This document shows positions 39,009 through 45,762 of a DNA stretch of 64,000 nucleotides, piece by piece. The translations under genes were made by a program, and so were the position numbers. Origin of the DNA: an uncultured archaeon (lineage in GTDB: Archaea > Thermoproteota > Nitrososphaeria > Nitrososphaerales > Gagatemarchaeaceae); NCBI GenBank assembly GCA_963817525.1, contig CAWFOU010000007.1:768001-832000 (forward strand). Reading direction: 5' to 3'. Positions within the stretch are counted from its first letter, which is position 1; every line of letters starts with the position of its first letter. The notes beneath the pieces were generated by a model. That model worked only from the letters and a program-made list of their open reading frames with translations. It made no database searches and was not told where the DNA came from.

Positions 39009-39437
39009 TTAAGCGTGAGTCCGCTGCCCCGTTAGCTCGGTCTCGCCGCCGGAGGAGAGCCTCTCGAGCGCGTGGACGGTCCCGCTCCTAAAGTGTCCCG
39101 CGGTCCTCCCCGACCCGATCTTGAGGAGCCCGTGGAACTCGATGTCCCACCTCGCCTCCAGCCTGTTGCCCGCGACCCTCACGGTCTGGGTCCCCGTGAA
39201 CGGGCCCGAGAGAAACCTATGGAAGAGCGTCTTGCTCGCGGGGTCGGCGGATATCTCAACCCTCCCCGACCCGCCGAAGGCGAACCTGGCGTCAGCGACG
39301 ACCTTGCCGCCCTGCCTATTCAGGACCTTGAGGGCCTTGGTCCCGTGCCAGTACTCCGGGATCCTCTCCACGTCGGACAGCCTTCCCCACACCGCCTCGG
39401 GGTCGCCCGGAAAGTCCAGGCTCGCCTCTATGAGCAC
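39009..39437 (-). CDS. SRPBCC-family protein
   Basis: PEAVWGRLSDVERIPEYW...GPFTG. Confidence 0.8.
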   Translation of the reverse strand: MLIEASLDFPGDPEAVWGRLSDVERIPEYWHGTKALKVLNRQGGKVVADARFAFGGSGRVEISADPASKTLFHRFLSGPFTGTQTVRVAGNRLEARWDIEFHGLLKIGSGRTAGHFRSGTVHALERLSSGGETELTGQRTHA

Positions 39438-39503: not shown

Positions 39504-39971
39504 ATGGTGCTCGTCCCCGTCCGCTACACGTTCAGCCAGAAGTTCTCGGTGCCCGTGGACGAGGCGTTCGCCTGGTCGATAGACTACGACCCGAACGACT
39601 TTTCCCTGATGGGCCAGGAGGGCAAGAGGAAGATCAACAAGCTCTCGGAGGACACTTTCATCCTCGAGGACGCCAGGCGGACCCCCGAGGGCATCGTCGA
39701 GAAGACGCGCCTCATCAGGGTCAACCACGACAAGCGCTCCTTCACCAACACTCACATCTCGGGCCCTACTCTCCACTCCCAGTTCTGGTACGAGTTCTTC
39801 CCCGAGGGCAAGCGGACGTCTAGGCTCGAGTTCACAGGGCTCCTGCTACTCCCGAGCGACAAGAAGCTGAGCACGAAGGAGGTGGCCGCCATCGCGGCCG
39901 CCGAGAAGAAGGGGGACTCGGCGATCTGGAGGCGCCTGGCGAAGGCCATGGAAGCCGAGCTGGGGAGGTAG
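39504..39971 (+). CDS. Hypothetical protein, tandem paralog 1 (SRPBCC-like)
   Basis: FSQKFSVP..EAF.W..DY.P.D..LMG shared with next ORF. Confidence 0.75.
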   Translation: MVLVPVRYTFSQKFSVPVDEAFAWSIDYDPNDFSLMGQEGKRKINKLSEDTFILEDARRTPEGIVEKTRLIRVNHDKRSFTNTHISGPTLHSQFWYEFFPEGKRTSRLEFTGLLLLPSDKKLSTKEVAAIAAAEKKGDSAIWRRLAKAMEAELGR

Positions 39972-39976
39972 TCACG

Positions 39977-40453
39977 GTGGCCGTCGTCACAATGAGGTAC
40001 GAGTTCTCCCAGCGCTTCCGCGTCCCCGCCGCCGAGGCCTTCAAGTGGCTGACGGACTACAGCCCGCGCGACCACGCGCTGATGGGTCACAAGGGCACGA
40101 GGAAGGTCACGCGGATCTCCGACGACACCATGATCCTGGACGACACGGTCTACCCCGGCGGCAGGGCTGTCCACAAGAAGAAGCTCATCAAGACCGACCA
40201 AAGGAAGCTGTGCTACTACAACGTCCACCTGACAGGCTCGACCAAGAACTCCATCTACACCTACAGGATAGTGCACGAGGGCGCGGGCGAGTCAAGGCTG
40301 GACTATACCGGGTACGAGATCTTCTACCCGAGGAAGGCCCCCACTGAGATGCAGCTCGCCGCCCAGGCGGCTGACGAGGAGGTCAACTGGACGAGGGAGT
40401 GGGGCCTCCTAGCCGAGGCGATGGAGAGCGACTTGCGCTCGAAGCGCGGCTAG
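39977..40453 (+). CDS. Hypothetical protein, tandem paralog 2 (SRPBCC-like)
   Basis: FSQRFRVP..EAF.W..DY.P.D..LMG...LAEAME. Confidence 0.75.
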   Translation: MAVVTMRYEFSQRFRVPAAEAFKWLTDYSPRDHALMGHKGTRKVTRISDDTMILDDTVYPGGRAVHKKKLIKTDQRKLCYYNVHLTGSTKNSIYTYRIVHEGAGESRLDYTGYEIFYPRKAPTEMQLAAQAADEEVNWTREWGLLAEAMESDLRSKRG

Positions 40454-40459
40454 CCCCGG

Positions 40460-40491
40460 TCACTCACACTTGTCATAGCCGCAATTCGTGC
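40460..40491 (-). repeat. Orphan copy of nrdJ 3' end
   Basis: Encodes TNCGYDKCE*; 24/32 identical to 41026-41057 (TNCGYSKCE*). Confidence 0.88.
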
Positions 40492-41091
40492 TGGATGGGC
40501 CGATAAATACGGCGAAGCTCTGCTATAACGTTGGCTTCTCTGAGACTCTGCAACAGGTGCAAGCGGGAATTACCGATTTGTGAATTCTATACTCAGCCAT
40601 CTGGAATCCGTCGCATCTGCAAAGAATGCGATAATGAATACTCGAGAAACTATCACAAAACACACCCCGAATACGATAAGCGATATGAGAAGGAATACGC
40701 GAGGAGGAACCCGAAGAGAAGATGGGCAACGGCTTGCTTGTCAGGCCATCGTAGAAATGGATACATCACCGAAATCACATCTAAGGAACTCTACCAGATT
40801 GCCTGCAAAACGGAACTTTGCTTCATCTGTGGATGTCAGATAGACTGGCAGCTGGGTAACAAGGGTCACATGCACAACAAGAGTCCAACCCTAGACAGGC
40901 TGGACAACGGAGATACGATTAGGAGCGGTAACGTCCTAATCATGTGCTACCAATGCAACGCGACGAAGCGCGACAGAACCTTGAAGGAGTTCCTAGACTA
41001 TTGCAGGGTCGTTACTGCAAATTTGCTACTCACACTTAGAATACCCGCAATTGGTACATTTATAGCAACCGCTTTCGAAGATTATTGCATT
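40492..41091 (+). mobile_element. Putative homing cassette: HNH-like gene plus recoded nrdJ 3' end
   Basis: AT-rich block between two copies of the nrdJ terminus. Confidence 0.65.
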
Positions 41092-41202
41092 CTCGTTGCA
41101 GTCGGGGCAAGTGCCTCCGCGCATCAGGGGTACGGACGACTCCTTGTTGACCTTGCCCGAGGTGAGGACCTCGAGCGCCTTGGCCACCGCGTCAGGGATT
41201 GA
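40531..41202 (+). CDS. Free-standing HNH/EndoVII-like endonuclease
   Basis: CNRC...CKEC zinc ribbon; CFIC...SPTLDRLDN...NV..MCYQCNATK; tail overlaps nrdJ antisense. Confidence 0.82.
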   Translation: MASLRLCNRCKRELPICEFYTQPSGIRRICKECDNEYSRNYHKTHPEYDKRYEKEYARRNPKRRWATACLSGHRRNGYITEITSKELYQIACKTELCFICGCQIDWQLGNKGHMHNKSPTLDRLDNGDTIRSGNVLIMCYQCNATKRDRTLKEFLDYCRVVTANLLLTLRIPAIGTFIATAFEDYCILVAVGASASAHQGYGRLLVDLARGEDLERLGHRVRD

Positions 41203-43317
41203 GAGCAGCTGGACCCCCTCCTCCCAGGAGACGTACTTGCCGCGGATGCCCTTTAGCATCTTCACGACGCTCTGGATGTCCCCGCCGTGCTGGAGGTAGA
41301 GGCTGATGAGCCTGCCTATAGCCTCGGCGTCGGCTTTCTCGTCGCCCCCTAGCTTGCCCAGGGTCACGAAGACCTCCTTCAGGGTGCCCGCCTCGTCCGA
41401 GTTGGCGGTGACGTAGAGCCCTCCCTGGGGCAGCTTGAGCTTCAGCGTCCGCCCGGTCATCACCTTGGGCCTCTCGAAGGCCGTGGGCGCCTCCTGCTTC
41501 GGCTCGGCCCTAGCGGCCGCCGCGCCCGCCTCCTTCTTCTTGTCGACGTTGGCCGTCTCGAGGATGCCCTCCCTGCTCCCCTCCCTGTAGACCGTGATGC
41601 CCTTGCACCCGAGCTTCCACGCCTGGAAGTAGATCTTGGCGACCTCCTCCGTGGAGGTGTCCTGGGCGAGGTTCACCGTGCTGGAGATGGCGGTGTCGAT
41701 GTGCTTCTGGATCGCGGCCTGCATCTTCACCCTCATCTCGGGCTTGATCTGGTGGGCCGTCACGAAGTACGAGGGCAGGGAGTTCTCGTCGGTGATGCGG
41801 AATACGCGCATGTACTCCTTCACGAGCGGGTGCCAGACCTTGAACTCGCCCTCGCTCAGCGACTTGCTCCTCCTCGTGTAGTATAGCGCGAAGACCGGCT
41901 CGACCCCGCTGGACGACCCCACGAAGATGGAGCCAGACCCGACCGGGGGCACCGTCGTGAGCGCAGAGTTCCTGATCCCCTGCGCCCTGATCTTGTCCTT
42001 GACCTTCGAGTCGAGCCTCTTGATGAAGGGCTGCGCCAGGTGCTTGTCAGCGTCGAAGGCGGGCGCCGGGCCCTTCTCCGTCGCGAGGTCGGTGGAGTAG
42101 TCGTAGATGATGTTCGTGATCCTGCTGAAGAGGCTGTCGACGAAGTCGACCGTCGCCTCGTCGTCGTACTTCATCCCCAGCTTGATCAGCATGTCCCCTA
42201 GCCCCGTCGTCCCGACGCCCACCCTCCTGGACCACAGGGAGGCCTTCTTCTGCTGGGGGAGCGGGTGCTTGTCGGCGTTGTAGTCGAGGACGTTGTCGAG
42301 GAACCTCGTGGCGTGCTGAGCAGCCATGGTGAGGCCGCTCCAGTCTATGCTGGCGCGGTCGGTGAACGCGTCCTTCACGAACGAGCTCAGGTTTATCGAG
42401 CCCAGGCAGCAGCAGCCGTAGTTCTCCAAGGTCTGCTCGCTGCACGGGTTGACGCCCTCCACCGCCATGCCGTTGTACTCGGTCGTCGAGTCCCTCTTGA
42501 TGGTGTCCCAGAAGATCAGGCCGGGCTCGTCGCTCTGCCAGGCCGCCTTTACGAGCTGATTCCAAACGTCCCTGGCGCGGACAGTCTTCTCGAACTTCAC
42601 CTTCTCGTTCTGGAACCTGAGGGTGAAGTCGGAGTCCTTCTCCACCGCGTTCATGAACTCGTCGGTGATCTTGACGGAGATGTTCGCATAGTTGACCTTC
42701 TTCAGGTCCTTCTTGACGTTGATGAAGTCGAAGATGTCGGGGTGGTCTACGCGCAGCGTGATCATCAGGGCGCCCCTCCTGCCCGCCTGCCCTATCGTCC
42801 CCGTCGTGGTCGATAGGAGCTCCATGAACGAGACCGAGCCGGAGCTGAAGATCGCCGAGTTGTTGACGGGCGTGCCGCGCGGCCTCAGCAGGGAGATGTC
42901 CGTGCCGACTCCGCCGCCGAAGCTGTAGGTCCTCGCCGCCTCCTTGCACCAGTCGAAGATGCCCTCTATCGAGTCTTCCCTGATCTTGAAGAAGTAGCAG
43001 TTGAGGAGCGTAGACCGCCTGGGCTGGCCTGCGCCGAACATTATCCTTCCGCCGGGTACAAATTTGAAATCGTCAAGTAGCCAATAGAACTTCTCCGTCC
43101 ATTCGTTCCTCTTCTCGTCGTTTACCTCAACCGAGGCGAGCTCGCGCGCCACCCTCCGCCAGAGCTGCTTCGGGGTCGTCTCGACCTGCTTGCCTGACTC
43201 GTCCCTCAGCGCGTACTTTTCGTAGAAGACCCGCGACCTGAGCTCGTCGCCGCCGAAAGCCTCGAGCGTCTCCTTTGGTAGGACGACCTCGGGCGCCTTC
43301 TGGAGCTGCTGCTCCAT
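41026..43317 (-). CDS. nrdJ: Class II (B12-dependent) ribonucleotide reductase
   Basis: FVPGGRI, LLNCY, RRGA, NPCSEQ, CCLGSINL, GVEP, KGITVYR, C-terminal CxxC..CxxCGYSKC; SD-supported ATG 43317 (ORF open to 43428). Confidence 0.96.
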   Translation of the reverse strand: MEQQLQKAPEVVLPKETLEAFGGDELRSRVFYEKYALRDESGKQVETTPKQLWRRVARELASVEVNDEKRNEWTEKFYWLLDDFKFVPGGRIMFGAGQPRRSTLLNCYFFKIREDSIEGIFDWCKEAARTYSFGGGVGTDISLLRPRGTPVNNSAIFSSGSVSFMELLSTTTGTIGQAGRRGALMITLRVDHPDIFDFINVKKDLKKVNYANISVKITDEFMNAVEKDSDFTLRFQNEKVKFEKTVRARDVWNQLVKAAWQSDEPGLIFWDTIKRDSTTEYNGMAVEGVNPCSEQTLENYGCCCLGSINLSSFVKDAFTDRASIDWSGLTMAAQHATRFLDNVLDYNADKHPLPQQKKASLWSRRVGVGTTGLGDMLIKLGMKYDDEATVDFVDSLFSRITNIIYDYSTDLATEKGPAPAFDADKHLAQPFIKRLDSKVKDKIRAQGIRNSALTTVPPVGSGSIFVGSSSGVEPVFALYYTRRSKSLSEGEFKVWHPLVKEYMRVFRITDENSLPSYFVTAHQIKPEMRVKMQAAIQKHIDTAISSTVNLAQDTSTEEVAKIYFQAWKLGCKGITVYREGSREGILETANVDKKKEAGAAAARAEPKQEAPTAFERPKVMTGRTLKLKLPQGGLYVTANSDEAGTLKEVFVTLGKLGGDEKADAEAIGRLISLYLQHGGDIQSVVKMLKGIRGKYVSWEEGVQLLSIPDAVAKALEVLTSGKVNKESSVPLMRGGTCPDCNENAIIFESGCYKCTNCGYSKCE

Positions 43318-43627
43318 CACCTCTCCTTCTTTTTTAGATTCAACCTCAGTTGTCAAATGTGAAATCGCGCACTCTCTCCAATCCTGACCTTTATCTGGTT
43401 CTTGGTGGACGATTCCTTCACCAGACATACCCTTAAATGTTATTTCGAGCGTGTGTTTCTCAAGAAAGCTACCGTTACCCGCGGCTTACGCTCATCATTT
43501 CATCGGTGAAGGAAAGATACTGGCATGCCCGAGTGAAAACTGGGGCCGGAGCCTTGGCGGGCTCACGTCAAACTCTGGCGGCGCTGGGGTCCTGGGAGTG
43601 ATCCGGGCGGTCCAAGAATCCCGATCG

Positions 43628-43674: not shown

Positions 43675-45762
43675 TTATTCCGCTGTCGAATATTGCGCGG
43701 TGGCGGTCGACCTGCACTTGGTGCACCTCTCGGTCTTCGCGGGCAATTTTGACCCGCAGTTGCGGCAGAACGACACTATCTTCTCGATCCCGAAGAACTC
43801 GAGCTTGGCAGTCGCGCCCATCGTGAGGTTGTATATCCCGCGCATGTCGAGCGACGTCGCGTCGAGGTAGACCGACAGCCCTGCCGCGGCGCCCTGGCTG
43901 AGCTTCGAGATGTAGCCCATCGTCTCGGCGTTGTTGAGGTCCTCCATCGTCAGCCTGGCTGCCTGCGAGTATCCCCTCTTCTCCAGGCTCTGGAGGTTCG
44001 CCCTGCCATACCTCTCCGAGTCGAGTGCGGCCAGCCTCCCCGCCCCCTCCGCCTCGATGAGCGCTATCCCCAGGCGCTCGCTTTTCCCCGACCTCTCGGC
44101 TGCGGACTGCGCGGCGGTCCCCAGTACCTTCGCGGCGAGCTCCGCCCTGGCGCCGGGGGCTGCGTCCTTGCTCAGGCCGAAGAGGGCCTCGTCGAGCCCC
44201 ACCAGGTTCATCACTAGCGGCATCTCGTCGGAGCTCACGTTGTCCGACCCGAAGCTCAGCGCGGGCAGCAGCCCCTTGTTCATCACCCTCTCCAGGAGGC
44301 GCCTTCGCGTGATCAGCGCGTCCGACGCGACTCCCATGAGCATGGATAGCTTCGCCCTGAAGTACGTCTCGTCCTGGTTCGACTCGTAGGAGAGCCTCGG
44401 GAGGTTGATGCTCAGGTTGTGCAGGACGCTGACGTTGTCGGCCTGGTGGTCCGCCGGGAGGATGTCGAGGTTGATGCCCAGGGAGCTCCTCTTCTGCCCT
44501 GAGGGGAAGAACGCGACCTTCCCGCCGTGAAACGCTATCGCCGCCGCGTCCTTGAGGTAGGAGCTGTCTTCCGACTTGTTCGGTTTCGCCAACAGGAGGC
44601 GGACCTCCGGCCTCGGGACCTGCTCGACGTAGTCCCTGTATGCGTCGAGGGTCGCGGCGAGGGTCTTCTCCATGAGCTCCCGCCCCGCGTCGTCCTTGGC
44701 GTAGATGTCCAGCTGCAGGGTCACCGAAGGCCTCTGGGTGGGCTGGAGCACCGAGGAGACCTGGTCGAAGAACTTGACGAGCGCGTCTGCCACGTCGCGC
44801 TTCGTCCTCGACCTGGTGAACTGCGCGAGGTACTGGAGGAAGTTCCTGTAGACAATCTCCTGGTTCGCCTCCTTCTTGATGAGGGGGGTGATGTTTGAGA
44901 TGACGTTGATGGCCTCCTCCAGGTTCCCGGGGCTCTGGAGCATCGGGACGCCGGGAAGCCTCCCCTTAGGGTTGAACCCCGACGCGCGGACTGAGAGGAG
45001 GTCGAGGAATATCGTGTCGGGGAGGAGCGCCCACGTCCCCGCCTCCGAGATGTGGATGTCCCCGTTGAGGTGGGCGTCAGAGACGTCCCTGGGGAGCTGC
45101 TCGAGGAGGAGGTACTCGGAGAAGACGGACTTGCCCGTCTGGTGCAGCAGGGACTCCGCGTCCCCGCCGTCGCCCCCCGCCTTGGCGAGGAGCTGGGTGA
45201 CGTCGAACACGGGGAGGCCGAGTCGCGTGAGCTTGTGCCTGTACTCCTCGAGGTTCTGCTCGACGAGGAGCGAGTTGACCATCTCCCTGATGAGGGGGGC
45301 GGTCAGGTACTGGGTCTGGAACTTGTAGAGGCGGGACTCCGTCTCGCTGGTGATCTTCTGGGCGAGCTCGACGGGCATCCCCGCCTCCTTGACCAGCGAC
45401 TGGAGGATCTTGTCCGCGTTGAACTCCTCCATGGCCTGGCGGGTAGTCCTGACGTAGAGCTTCCCGCTCTCGATGAGCGACTGCTCCTCTATCTGCCGCG
45501 TGAGGTTGAGGACGAGCCTCCCGAGGTTGGTGACCGTGTACTTGCGCTCCTGCCTGTTGAGCTGGATGAGGAGCTGGCGGACGAGCTTCCTCAGGTGGTA
45601 GGCGAACTTGCCCGACTCCTTCTTCGACTTGAATCCGGCGAGCGACTTTAGCGCGCTGTAGGTGAGAGGGCCCTTGACGTTGAGTATCTTTAGGATCTCC
45701 AGCCTCTGCGGAGAGGCGATGACGCTGTAAATTGTCCTGACACGGCGAGGAGCGGCTTGCAT
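43675..45762 (-). CDS. wHTH-ATP cone-NrdD-like protein lacking glycyl-radical motif
   Basis: ArsR-like N-terminus (RLEILKIL...FAYHLRKL), ATP cone, TRLGLP, AHLNGDIH, SINLPR, CRNC/CTKC, no RxxGY. Confidence 0.85.
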   Translation of the reverse strand: MQAAPRRVRTIYSVIASPQRLEILKILNVKGPLTYSALKSLAGFKSKKESGKFAYHLRKLVRQLLIQLNRQERKYTVTNLGRLVLNLTRQIEEQSLIESGKLYVRTTRQAMEEFNADKILQSLVKEAGMPVELAQKITSETESRLYKFQTQYLTAPLIREMVNSLLVEQNLEEYRHKLTRLGLPVFDVTQLLAKAGGDGGDAESLLHQTGKSVFSEYLLLEQLPRDVSDAHLNGDIHISEAGTWALLPDTIFLDLLSVRASGFNPKGRLPGVPMLQSPGNLEEAINVISNITPLIKKEANQEIVYRNFLQYLAQFTRSRTKRDVADALVKFFDQVSSVLQPTQRPSVTLQLDIYAKDDAGRELMEKTLAATLDAYRDYVEQVPRPEVRLLLAKPNKSEDSSYLKDAAAIAFHGGKVAFFPSGQKRSSLGINLDILPADHQADNVSVLHNLSINLPRLSYESNQDETYFRAKLSMLMGVASDALITRRRLLERVMNKGLLPALSFGSDNVSSDEMPLVMNLVGLDEALFGLSKDAAPGARAELAAKVLGTAAQSAAERSGKSERLGIALIEAEGAGRLAALDSERYGRANLQSLEKRGYSQAARLTMEDLNNAETMGYISKLSQGAAAGLSVYLDATSLDMRGIYNLTMGATAKLEFFGIEKIVSFCRNCGSKLPAKTERCTKCRSTATAQYSTAE

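Follow-up and report, generated by a model that had tools for sequence, protein, structure and literature searches.

At the 3' end of nrdJ, the gene of a class II (B12-dependent) ribonucleotide reductase (RNR), an uncultured soil thaumarchaeon carries a small gene for a putative nuclease on the opposite strand and, beyond it, a second copy of the end of nrdJ. The locus lies in the 64-kb stretch of DNA that was analysed (contig CAWFOU010000007.1, positions 768,001 to 832,000), here called the window. The contig that contains the window is longer than 830 kb and comes from an archaeal genome of 2.8 Mb, a metagenome-assembled genome (MAG) with 8.75% contamination; V-ATPase and SRPBCC genes are among the neighbours of nrdJ. 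The original prediction had placed the locus in the context of phage RNR genes as homing hot spots; the context found is that of an archaeal chromosome. The features which that prediction described are all present in the sequence, and its interpretation holds in part. Along the forward strand, the locus consists of a convergent SRPBCC-family gene (39977 to 40453, plus strand; weak Pfam match to Polyketide_cyc2), the orphan copy of the nrdJ tail (40460 to 40489, minus strand), a short 5' region (40490 to 40530, plus strand), the body of the nuclease gene (40531 to 41025, plus strand, start codon TTG, residues 1-165) and nrdJ (41026 to 43428, minus strand). We refer to the insert as the cassette; it spans 566 bp and the nuclease open reading frame (ORF) is its only coding content.

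NrdJ was assigned by Pfam (Ribonuc_red_lgC, 5.8e-108; Ribonuc_red_lgN; TSCPD) and by NCBIfam (NrdJ_Z, 2.5e-163; PRK08665, 5.8e-183). Its C-terminus, CPDC followed after twelve residues by CYKCTNCGYSKCE and the stop, holds six cysteines and is of the zinc-finger type. In another NrdJ the cysteine-rich C-terminal domain is described as zinc-binding and as relaying electrons to the active site (PMC5704485). The functional tail TNCGYSKCE with its stop lies at 41026-41055 on the minus strand. The orphan TNCGYDKCE, which repeats the last nine codons and the stop (stop codon at 40460-40462), lies 566 bp downstream, 6 nt from the stop of the convergent SRPBCC gene. Both tails had been recognized in the original prediction, with end coordinates 2 nt too far. 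Over 28-30 nt the two copies are 82% identical, with 23 of 30 nt matching. No other 30-mer with at least 20 of 30 matches to the tail was found on either strand of the window, and the peptide pattern NCG[YF].KC[ED] followed by a stop occurs in its six frames only at those two places. The orphan marks the former end of nrdJ, with the SRPBCC gene as a fixed landmark for the original 3' end.

The nuclease ORF as it reads in the window (40531-41202, plus strand, 223 codons, beginning between the two tail copies) overlaps nrdJ by 177 nt on the opposite strand, close to the antisense run of about 175 nt that had been predicted. The native overlap is shorter. In six relatives (L021, L005, L003, L028, L013, L009) the nuclease ORF reaches 37 nt into nrdJ and closes with FHSHFEYPQLVHL and a stop, and in two further loci (L037, L040) it ends at position -16. 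Hereby the last 12 native nuclease codons are the reverse complement of the nrdJ tail, read in a different frame, and the native nuclease stop is formed by the conserved Cys-Tyr codons of nrdJ. Alignment of the DNA with the six relatives places one extra nucleotide in the window directly outside the nrdJ stop (41017 to 41026). This insertion shifts the nuclease into the codon-aligned antisense frame of nrdJ, which explains 177 nt without a stop in a gene with a G+C content at third codon positions (GC3) of 0.95. The ancestral C-terminal frame, YSHLEYPQLVHL followed by TAG, can still be read at 41027 to 41065 on the plus strand, now out of frame. The 59-residue read-through (41026 to 41202, plus strand), antisense codon for codon to nrdJ, takes the place of the disordered last 12 residues; it has no homologue and is a frameshift by-product and no conserved feature. 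The frameshift may be an early step of decay or neutral. For annotation this means that the 223-codon ORF is to be read as a frameshift product and that the true nuclease has about 177 residues.

The cassette stands out by its base composition. Along the window, G+C falls from about 0.64 to 0.41-0.53 between approximately 40450 and 41150, and the nuclease ORF has 47% G+C. Upstream of the nuclease, a TATA-like box, GATAAATA (40502-40509), lies 21 nt 5' of the start codon; at the same position six relatives keep TTAAATA or CTAAATA. The spacing of this putative promoter suggests a leaderless mRNA converging on nrdJ.

The nuclease ORF has no Pfam match above the cut-off (best, HNH_5, E 2.5) and none in NCBIfam. 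In PHROGs, residues 4-162 match family 1035, 'endonuclease VII' (3.9e-25), and several 'HNH endonuclease' families. An AlphaFold model built from 34 sequences (mean predicted local distance difference test score, pLDDT, 82.9) finds its best solved structure in PacI (3ldy; Foldseek probability 0.99, E 6e-3); Gme HNH, Hpy99I, McrA, Cas9 HNH and T4 EndoVII are further top matches in the PDB. Structural alignment with PacI covers 109 residues at a root mean square deviation of 6.8 Å and Z 7.1. This Z is middling, so that the PacI-like assignment of the model rests on fold and motif together. The motif reads CxxC...SPTLDRLDN...N...CxxCNATK. The zinc site C97xxC100 and C139xxC142 is invariant in a seven-sequence alignment; among the 34 sequences C97 and C142 never vary, and at least 90% have C100 and C139. 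The model places strands at 119-123 and 135-139, followed by a helix, which gives a beta-beta-alpha-metal core flanked by the CxxC...CxxC zinc site. N134 is invariant in the seven sequences and Asn in 115 of 132 family representatives, and N143 is invariant in both subfamily alignments and Asn in 129 of 132. PacI (3ldy/3m7k; 'group 20' of the His-Me finger enzymes) has the same layout of an N-terminal CxxC...CxxC zinc ribbon (PMC5714182, PMC3384342) and a beta-beta-alpha-metal core of the type (V/L)DRxD...N...CxxCNxxK, and both proteins are without the canonical His. The sequence similarity is weak: a profile of seven orthologues matched PacI at E 0.08, in two collinear parts corresponding to the N-terminal zinc ribbon and the DRxD...N...CxxCNxxK core. 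PacI itself is described as a restriction enzyme with an 8-bp palindromic site and not as the enzyme of a mobile element (PMC5714182, PMC3384342). The term 'HNH-like' used in the original prediction describes the fold correctly; activity as a nuclease, and the chemistry behind it, are putative. Pfam gave no intein domain in the nuclease ORF, and Rfam no intron family at E up to 1 between 39800 and 41800.

For comparison we collected nrdJ from 40 related genomes and added four loci found by scanning 185,579 species genomes; the family-level set drawn from these comprises 26 loci (the window and 25 related soil Thaumarchaeota nrdJ loci). Exactly half of them (13/26) carry the nuclease gene at the same site and in the same orientation, antisense to the 3' end of nrdJ, and the other 13 are without it. 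Such presence or absence at a fixed site is a mark of free-standing homing endonuclease genes. Among the occupied loci, seven nuclease ORFs are intact (L003, L005, L009, L013, L021, L028, L037), one has the C-terminal frameshift (the window), three have internal frameshifts (L039, L040, L041) and two are remnants (L004, L015). Between them, close relatives show the gene intact, frameshifted, truncated and missing, which covers the stages of invasion, degeneration and loss. On the nrdJ protein tree (without L019 because of frameshifts, L001 as a duplicate of the window and L029 as a distant paralogue) at least six gains or losses of the cassette are needed. The pairs L015/L016 and L013/L011 differ in state even though their flanks are about 94% identical.

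All 12 archaeal matches of the 185,579-genome scan adjoin nrdJ. In a survey of the family the gene was found in 12 of 97 genomes and 3 of 10 genera, with one locus each, and the genome of the window has a single copy. These numbers bear on two other explanations of the locus. One is a transposon or an integrase-type element, for which the tail copies would be att sites or a target-site duplication. The insert is indeed flanked by direct repeats of 28-37 nt; these repeats are diverged and not identical, the 566-bp insert encodes the nuclease only, no transposase or integrase family was matched, the insert showed no terminal inverted repeats, and the element is single in each genome and always at nrdJ. 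We regard a transposon as very improbable. The other is an artefact of assembly or binning, to which the contamination of the MAG and the sharp drop of G+C over the insert could point. The same architecture is present in 12 other genomes. Moreover, the frameshift site and both junctions, including that between orphan and nuclease, are covered by contigs of four of four public runs with 0 differences (the runs belong to one study and are possibly the source of the assembly). An artefact is hardly credible.

Comparison of occupied with empty alleles, suggested as a check in the original prediction, located the replaced end of nrdJ. In the three closest occupied/empty pairs, mismatches are concentrated in the last 40 nt of the gene: 10/40 versus 84/1460 upstream for L013/L011 (Fisher p 1e-4), 11/40 versus 37/1460 for L015/L016 (p 1.3e-8) and 19/40 versus 186/1460 for L041/L018 (p 1.6e-7). 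No excess was seen beyond -40 in these pairs, where the next 60-nt bin upstream is not elevated. The last 40 nt or so of the host gene differ as a block, as expected for flanking sequence converted together with an element, and the boundary near -40 falls where the orphan begins and the nuclease ORF stops. The imported tract is accordingly a block of about 37-40 nt or approximately 12 codons; in the window the replacement tail, made up of the stop and the last ~12 nrdJ codons, corresponds to 41026 to 41062 on the minus strand. Replacement of the tail with the resident end left behind as an orphan had been foreseen; the tract is shorter than the 21 codons then proposed.

Codon usage distinguishes occupied from empty alleles as well. 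Among the final 21 nrdJ codons of the window, 12 have A or T in third position in an otherwise G/C-ending gene, as had been noted, and GC3 is 0.52 in the last 25 codons against 0.95 in the 300 codons upstream. The A/T-rich tail was expected to be missing from nuclease-free relatives, and mostly it is: the difference in GC3 between the last 12 codons and the sequence upstream has a median of -0.33 in occupied (n=13) and +0.01 in empty loci (n=13; Mann-Whitney p 8e-5, with relatives that are not independent of each other; the upstream GC3 of 0.51 in L019 is a frame artefact). The Ser codon of GYSKCE is TCN in 13/13 occupied and in 5/13 empty loci, with AGY in the other 8/13 empty ones, and four orphans (L021, L003, L028, L004) have AGC. 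The last Cys codon is TGT in 12/13 occupied versus 2/13 empty loci. In the window and in L021, A/T-ending codons reach to about -75; in the window these (AAT GCA ATA .. GAA .. GGT, 41063 to 41091, minus strand), partly common to L021, may reflect a longer co-conversion tract or drift. A 24-nt direct repeat in this region (40990-41013 and 41074-41097, 75% identity) was set aside, being about what chance gives in 1 kb. Across the cassette boundary (-35 to -30 of nrdJ; window 41055-41060) we noted the palindrome GTGCAC, a candidate core of a recognition site, in 6/13 empty and 2/13 occupied loci, a difference that is not significant; the window reads ATGTAC there.

Orphan tails are found in 8 of 13 occupied loci (the window, L003, L021, L028, L039, L040, L041 and L004). 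In L028 and L041 homology to an empty allele begins at -33 and -37, respectively. Locus L019 represents an empty syntenic allele, in which about 20 nt separate the nrdJ stop from the convergent neighbour, the arrangement also seen behind the orphan in the window. In L003, L004, L005 and L028 an SRPBCC orthologue follows the cassette, and in L019 it comes immediately after nrdJ. A secondary, repeat-mediated loss in L019 was considered and dropped, since this locus falls outside the occupied clade. The orphan is absent in L005, L013, L009, L037 and L015; in L013 and L009, 190-230 nt of the downstream flank are gone as well, with junctions that differ between the two. As a separate observation, the empty allele L014 has a cassette-type tail (TAT AAA ... 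TCA AAG TGT GAG TGA; tail GC3 0.58), which may be what a lost cassette left behind. Over the first ~100 nt downstream of its nrdJ stop the sequence resembles a tRNA, and ARAGORN found no gene there.

The explanation that we favour, and consider probable as a whole, is that a selfish endonuclease cassette replaced the end of nrdJ by homing and left the resident tail behind as an orphan. What the sequences themselves show is a free-standing cassette of 566 bp at a fixed site about 37 nt before the stop of chromosomal nrdJ. It consists of the TATA-like box, the nuclease gene of ~177 codons opposite to the nrdJ strand, and a substitute for the last ~12 codons and the stop of nrdJ that, read as reverse complement, also encodes the last 12 nuclease codons. 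With the end of the six-cysteine tail provided in this way, NrdJ stays whole, and the resident tail lies 566 bp downstream as a dead orphan. According to the proposed mechanism, the nuclease would cut or nick an empty nrdJ close to the -37 junction, and the cassette would be copied in when the break is repaired from an occupied allele, with the body of nrdJ as one homology arm and the orphan and downstream flank as the other. We think it likely, at a slightly lower level than the explanation as a whole, that empty alleles are cut and repaired in this way and that occupied alleles are protected by their split site. The diverged tail copies could recombine with each other, which would excise the cassette cleanly. 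The original prediction took the recoded tail for an immune allele. Insertion alone splits the presumed target, so that recoding is not required for immunity; that the synonymous differences of the tail add protection, or reduce recombination between the repeats, is conceivable, and here we lean somewhat to the negative.

Several observations weigh against this explanation, and two rival accounts draw on them. First, a contrast between an 'old' G/C-ending and a recoded tail had been proposed. In the window this contrast is blurred, since AAT, TAT and TGT codons stand in both the orphan and the functional tail, which differ at just 7 of 30 nt; it is clearer in the relatives. The tail might then have changed in place after the insertion, through dual coding, through selection for less identity between the repeats or through a relaxed codon bias at the gene end. 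The tail is dual-coding in all intact relatives, some empty alleles carry ATA Ile codons or, as counted above, TCN for Ser, and L014 and L010 have a lower tail GC3 despite being empty. On the other side, there is little constraint on the C-terminal peptide of the nuclease: two loci have its end at -16, the window has it frameshifted, and its last 12-residue native piece has a low pLDDT of 46-60. A switch of the Ser codon from AGY to TCN, the family present in every occupied locus, needs 2-3 changes, and the change is sharply bounded near -40, at the orphan start and nuclease ORF end. We consider a change in place unlikely, without dismissing it.

Second, the active site is unusual. The canonical catalytic His is replaced by Arg123 (in LDR), and Arg is found in 126/132 aligned representatives, so that the predicted 'HNH-like nuclease' has the fold and, across its family, Arg in place of the catalytic His. 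PacI also is without the canonical His, and there a Tyr of the omega loop is described as its substitute (PMC5714182). The column of this Tyr is occupied by Ile130, invariant in the seven-sequence alignment; it is I, L or V in 131 family representatives and L021, with PacI ...EGYSPQN aligned to ...DVIRSDN. As both known general-base residues are absent, nuclease activity is a matter of inference from fold and motif. Third, a scan of viral contigs gave three distant relatives, 31-37% identical and none beside a close nrdJ, and no low-GC donor pool. Fourth, no junction without the nuclease was seen in the contigs of the sequencing runs, which, at a depth of 2-5 and with contigs only, says little. 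Homing and immunity are what we infer.

Finally, the nuclease tree can be reconciled with the host clades. Monophyly of the host clades in the nuclease tree was not rejected by the approximately unbiased (AU) test (p 0.26), with which tree incongruence had been sought as a sign of horizontal transfer. The two clade-B nuclease copies group together at 94/93, and in the nrdJ DNA tree the six occupied close relatives of the window fall into a single clade (support 96). Given these groupings and the AU result, a history of one or a few ancient invasions, later inherited vertically and lost in places, agrees with the trees no less than continued homing does. The numbers of nonsynonymous substitutions per site (dN) are also similar, 0.26-0.31 for the nuclease and 0.25-0.29 for the neighbouring SRPBCC gene (3 of 10 pairs). 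Synonymous divergence (dS) is at least 1.3 or saturated for the nuclease versus 0.33-0.41 for nrdJ. The GC3 of nrdJ and the neighbour, 0.74-0.96, depresses dS, which consequently is no evidence for re-invasion; with this bias, and with a neighbour whose dN is as high as that of the nuclease, dS was abandoned as a clock.

The rival account built on these data is that of an old resident, which entered once or a few times long ago, by whatever mechanism, together with a local duplication of the nrdJ end and has been inherited vertically since, with a role in the host or in slow decay and with no homing today. The nuclease tree, the monophyly of the occupied relatives, the dN values, the missing viral or low-GC donor and the missing catalytic His are all compatible with it. 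Selection and distribution are less so. The dN/dS of the nuclease is about 0.04-0.13 (13 of 28 pairs with computable dS, the rest being saturated), which at the level of sequence shows purifying selection; a ratio near 0.1 across species is hard to square with mere decay. With 6 of 13 copies broken, truncated or frameshifted, a needed host function is difficult to maintain. The very close pairs L015/L016 and L013/L011 differ in state, the nrdJ tree calls for its six or more state changes, and the atypical GC3 of the nuclease has not been ameliorated in any of the eight loci examined for it (0.53-0.61 versus 0.87-0.96 in nrdJ). Purifying selection alongside damaged copies and close pairs of different state favours a selfish element that is at least recently mobile. 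The old resident appears to us improbable, to about the same degree as a change of the tail in place.

Free-standing homing endonucleases are well known from phages and organelles, and gene-end replacement has so far been described mainly from fungal mitochondria. The closest known counterpart of the cassette is the mobile-ORF (mORF) 'gene hybrid' of these mitochondria, known from atp6 of Allomyces macrogynus and from atp6, atp9, cox2 and nad3 of Glomus sp. (PMC3630166). According to this source, an endonuclease ORF lies there near the 3' end of a conserved gene, a divergent and mostly synonymous replacement C-terminus is in frame with the host gene, the native C-terminus lies downstream as an untranslated duplicate, and the native copy is closer to the relatives than the inserted one. 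The window has the same order of tail (41026-41062), ORF (40531-41025) and orphan (40460-40489). The systems differ in other respects. The mORFs are described from organelle genomes, with LAGLIDADG or GIY-YIG enzymes on the same strand as the host gene and often in phase with it (PMC3630166), whereas the cassette is located on an archaeal chromosome, its PacI-like enzyme is without the His, its ORF is antisense, the tail in reverse complement also encodes the last 12 nuclease codons, and the replaced piece has only ~37 nt.

The second comparison is with intronless homing in T4-like phages, in which mobE lies between nrdA and nrdB and the mobE of Aeh1 splits nrdA (PMC2988022). An HNH-type gene by or in an RNR gene, a patchy distribution and co-conversion of the flanks are common to these phage endonucleases and the cassette. 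The phage mob and seg genes are described as intergenic or as splitting the host gene into two polypeptides, with mixed infection as the route of transfer between phage genomes, and PMC2988022 describes none with a replacement gene end and an orphan. Inteins and group I introns of RNR genes also make selfish use of a conserved RNR sequence while the enzyme is kept functional. Unlike these, nothing is spliced in the cassette; function is kept by duplicating and replacing the gene end. In the openly searchable literature we found no prokaryotic or archaeal description of such a gene-end replacement (subscription-only literature was not covered), and a genomics paper on this archaeal family contains no mention of endonuclease, homing, mobile or ribonucleotide terms.

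Some further observations concern nrdJ, the nuclease and their neighbours. In L041 (5444-6469, minus strand) an in-frame insert of about 1 kb lies within nrdJ, between the residues corresponding to 143 and 144 of the window NrdJ; it matches Pfam Intein_splicing at 6.7e-6, below the curated cut-off, and is probably an intein. If so, nrdJ of this family would host two kinds of selfish insert. In four genomes nrdJ is read in at least two pieces or with internal stops (G020 with L021, G010 with L026, G022 with L027 and G009 with L019), for example as amino acids 6-247 with one TAA, then 246-800, in G020 and as 39-349 and 352-800 in G010; these may be broken genes, further inserts or errors of long-read assembly. 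Distant bacterial relatives of the nuclease (L043, 2890-3414; L045, 2494-3219; 35% identity) lie in phage- or plasmid-like contexts near primase- and helicase-like genes and without nrdJ, and for this reason were dropped as a source of information on the cassette. The L045 protein keeps a loop GY like that of PacI and is without the second CxxC. Downstream of nrdJ, three SRPBCC-like paralogues stand in a row (39009-39437, minus strand; 39504-39971 and 39977-40453, plus strand), of which the last two are ~39% identical; the same tandem pair is found in relatives. On the other side, nrdJ has as its neighbour a gene for a 695-residue protein (43675-45762, minus strand), which combines an N-terminal winged-helix part (DUF7347, HTH_20) with an ATP-cone and an NrdD-like domain (PF13597, 1.4e-26), an unusual fusion for a protein resembling anaerobic RNR.

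Taken jointly, the findings could describe a 'gene-end replacement' homing element of archaeal chromosomes, a reading that joins four ideas and that we put forward tentatively, as less probable than not. The 3' end of the nuclease gene would be fused to the reverse complement of the host tail, so that in a compact antisense dual coding 37 nt finish two proteins, and conserved Cys-Tyr codons of the host would provide the nuclease stop wherever the element lands. The orphan repeat would serve as downstream homology arm in genomes with different neighbours and as a site of scar-free excision. The synonymous tail differences would both block cleavage and hinder excision. And the PacI-like family without the catalytic His or the Tyr of PacI would cut by an undescribed arrangement of the active site. 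This family is very large and uncharacterised (5456 representatives at E<=0.001), and the nuclease of the cassette offers a tractable member of it that is without both known general-base residues. For the soil archaea themselves, the locus presents a natural series of all stages of a homing cycle within one uncultured family, which may serve as a marker for gene flow between cells that have not yet been grown. If the joint reading is true, the persistence of intact nuclease copies under purifying selection would indicate that cells of uncultured soil Thaumarchaeota exchange DNA regularly.

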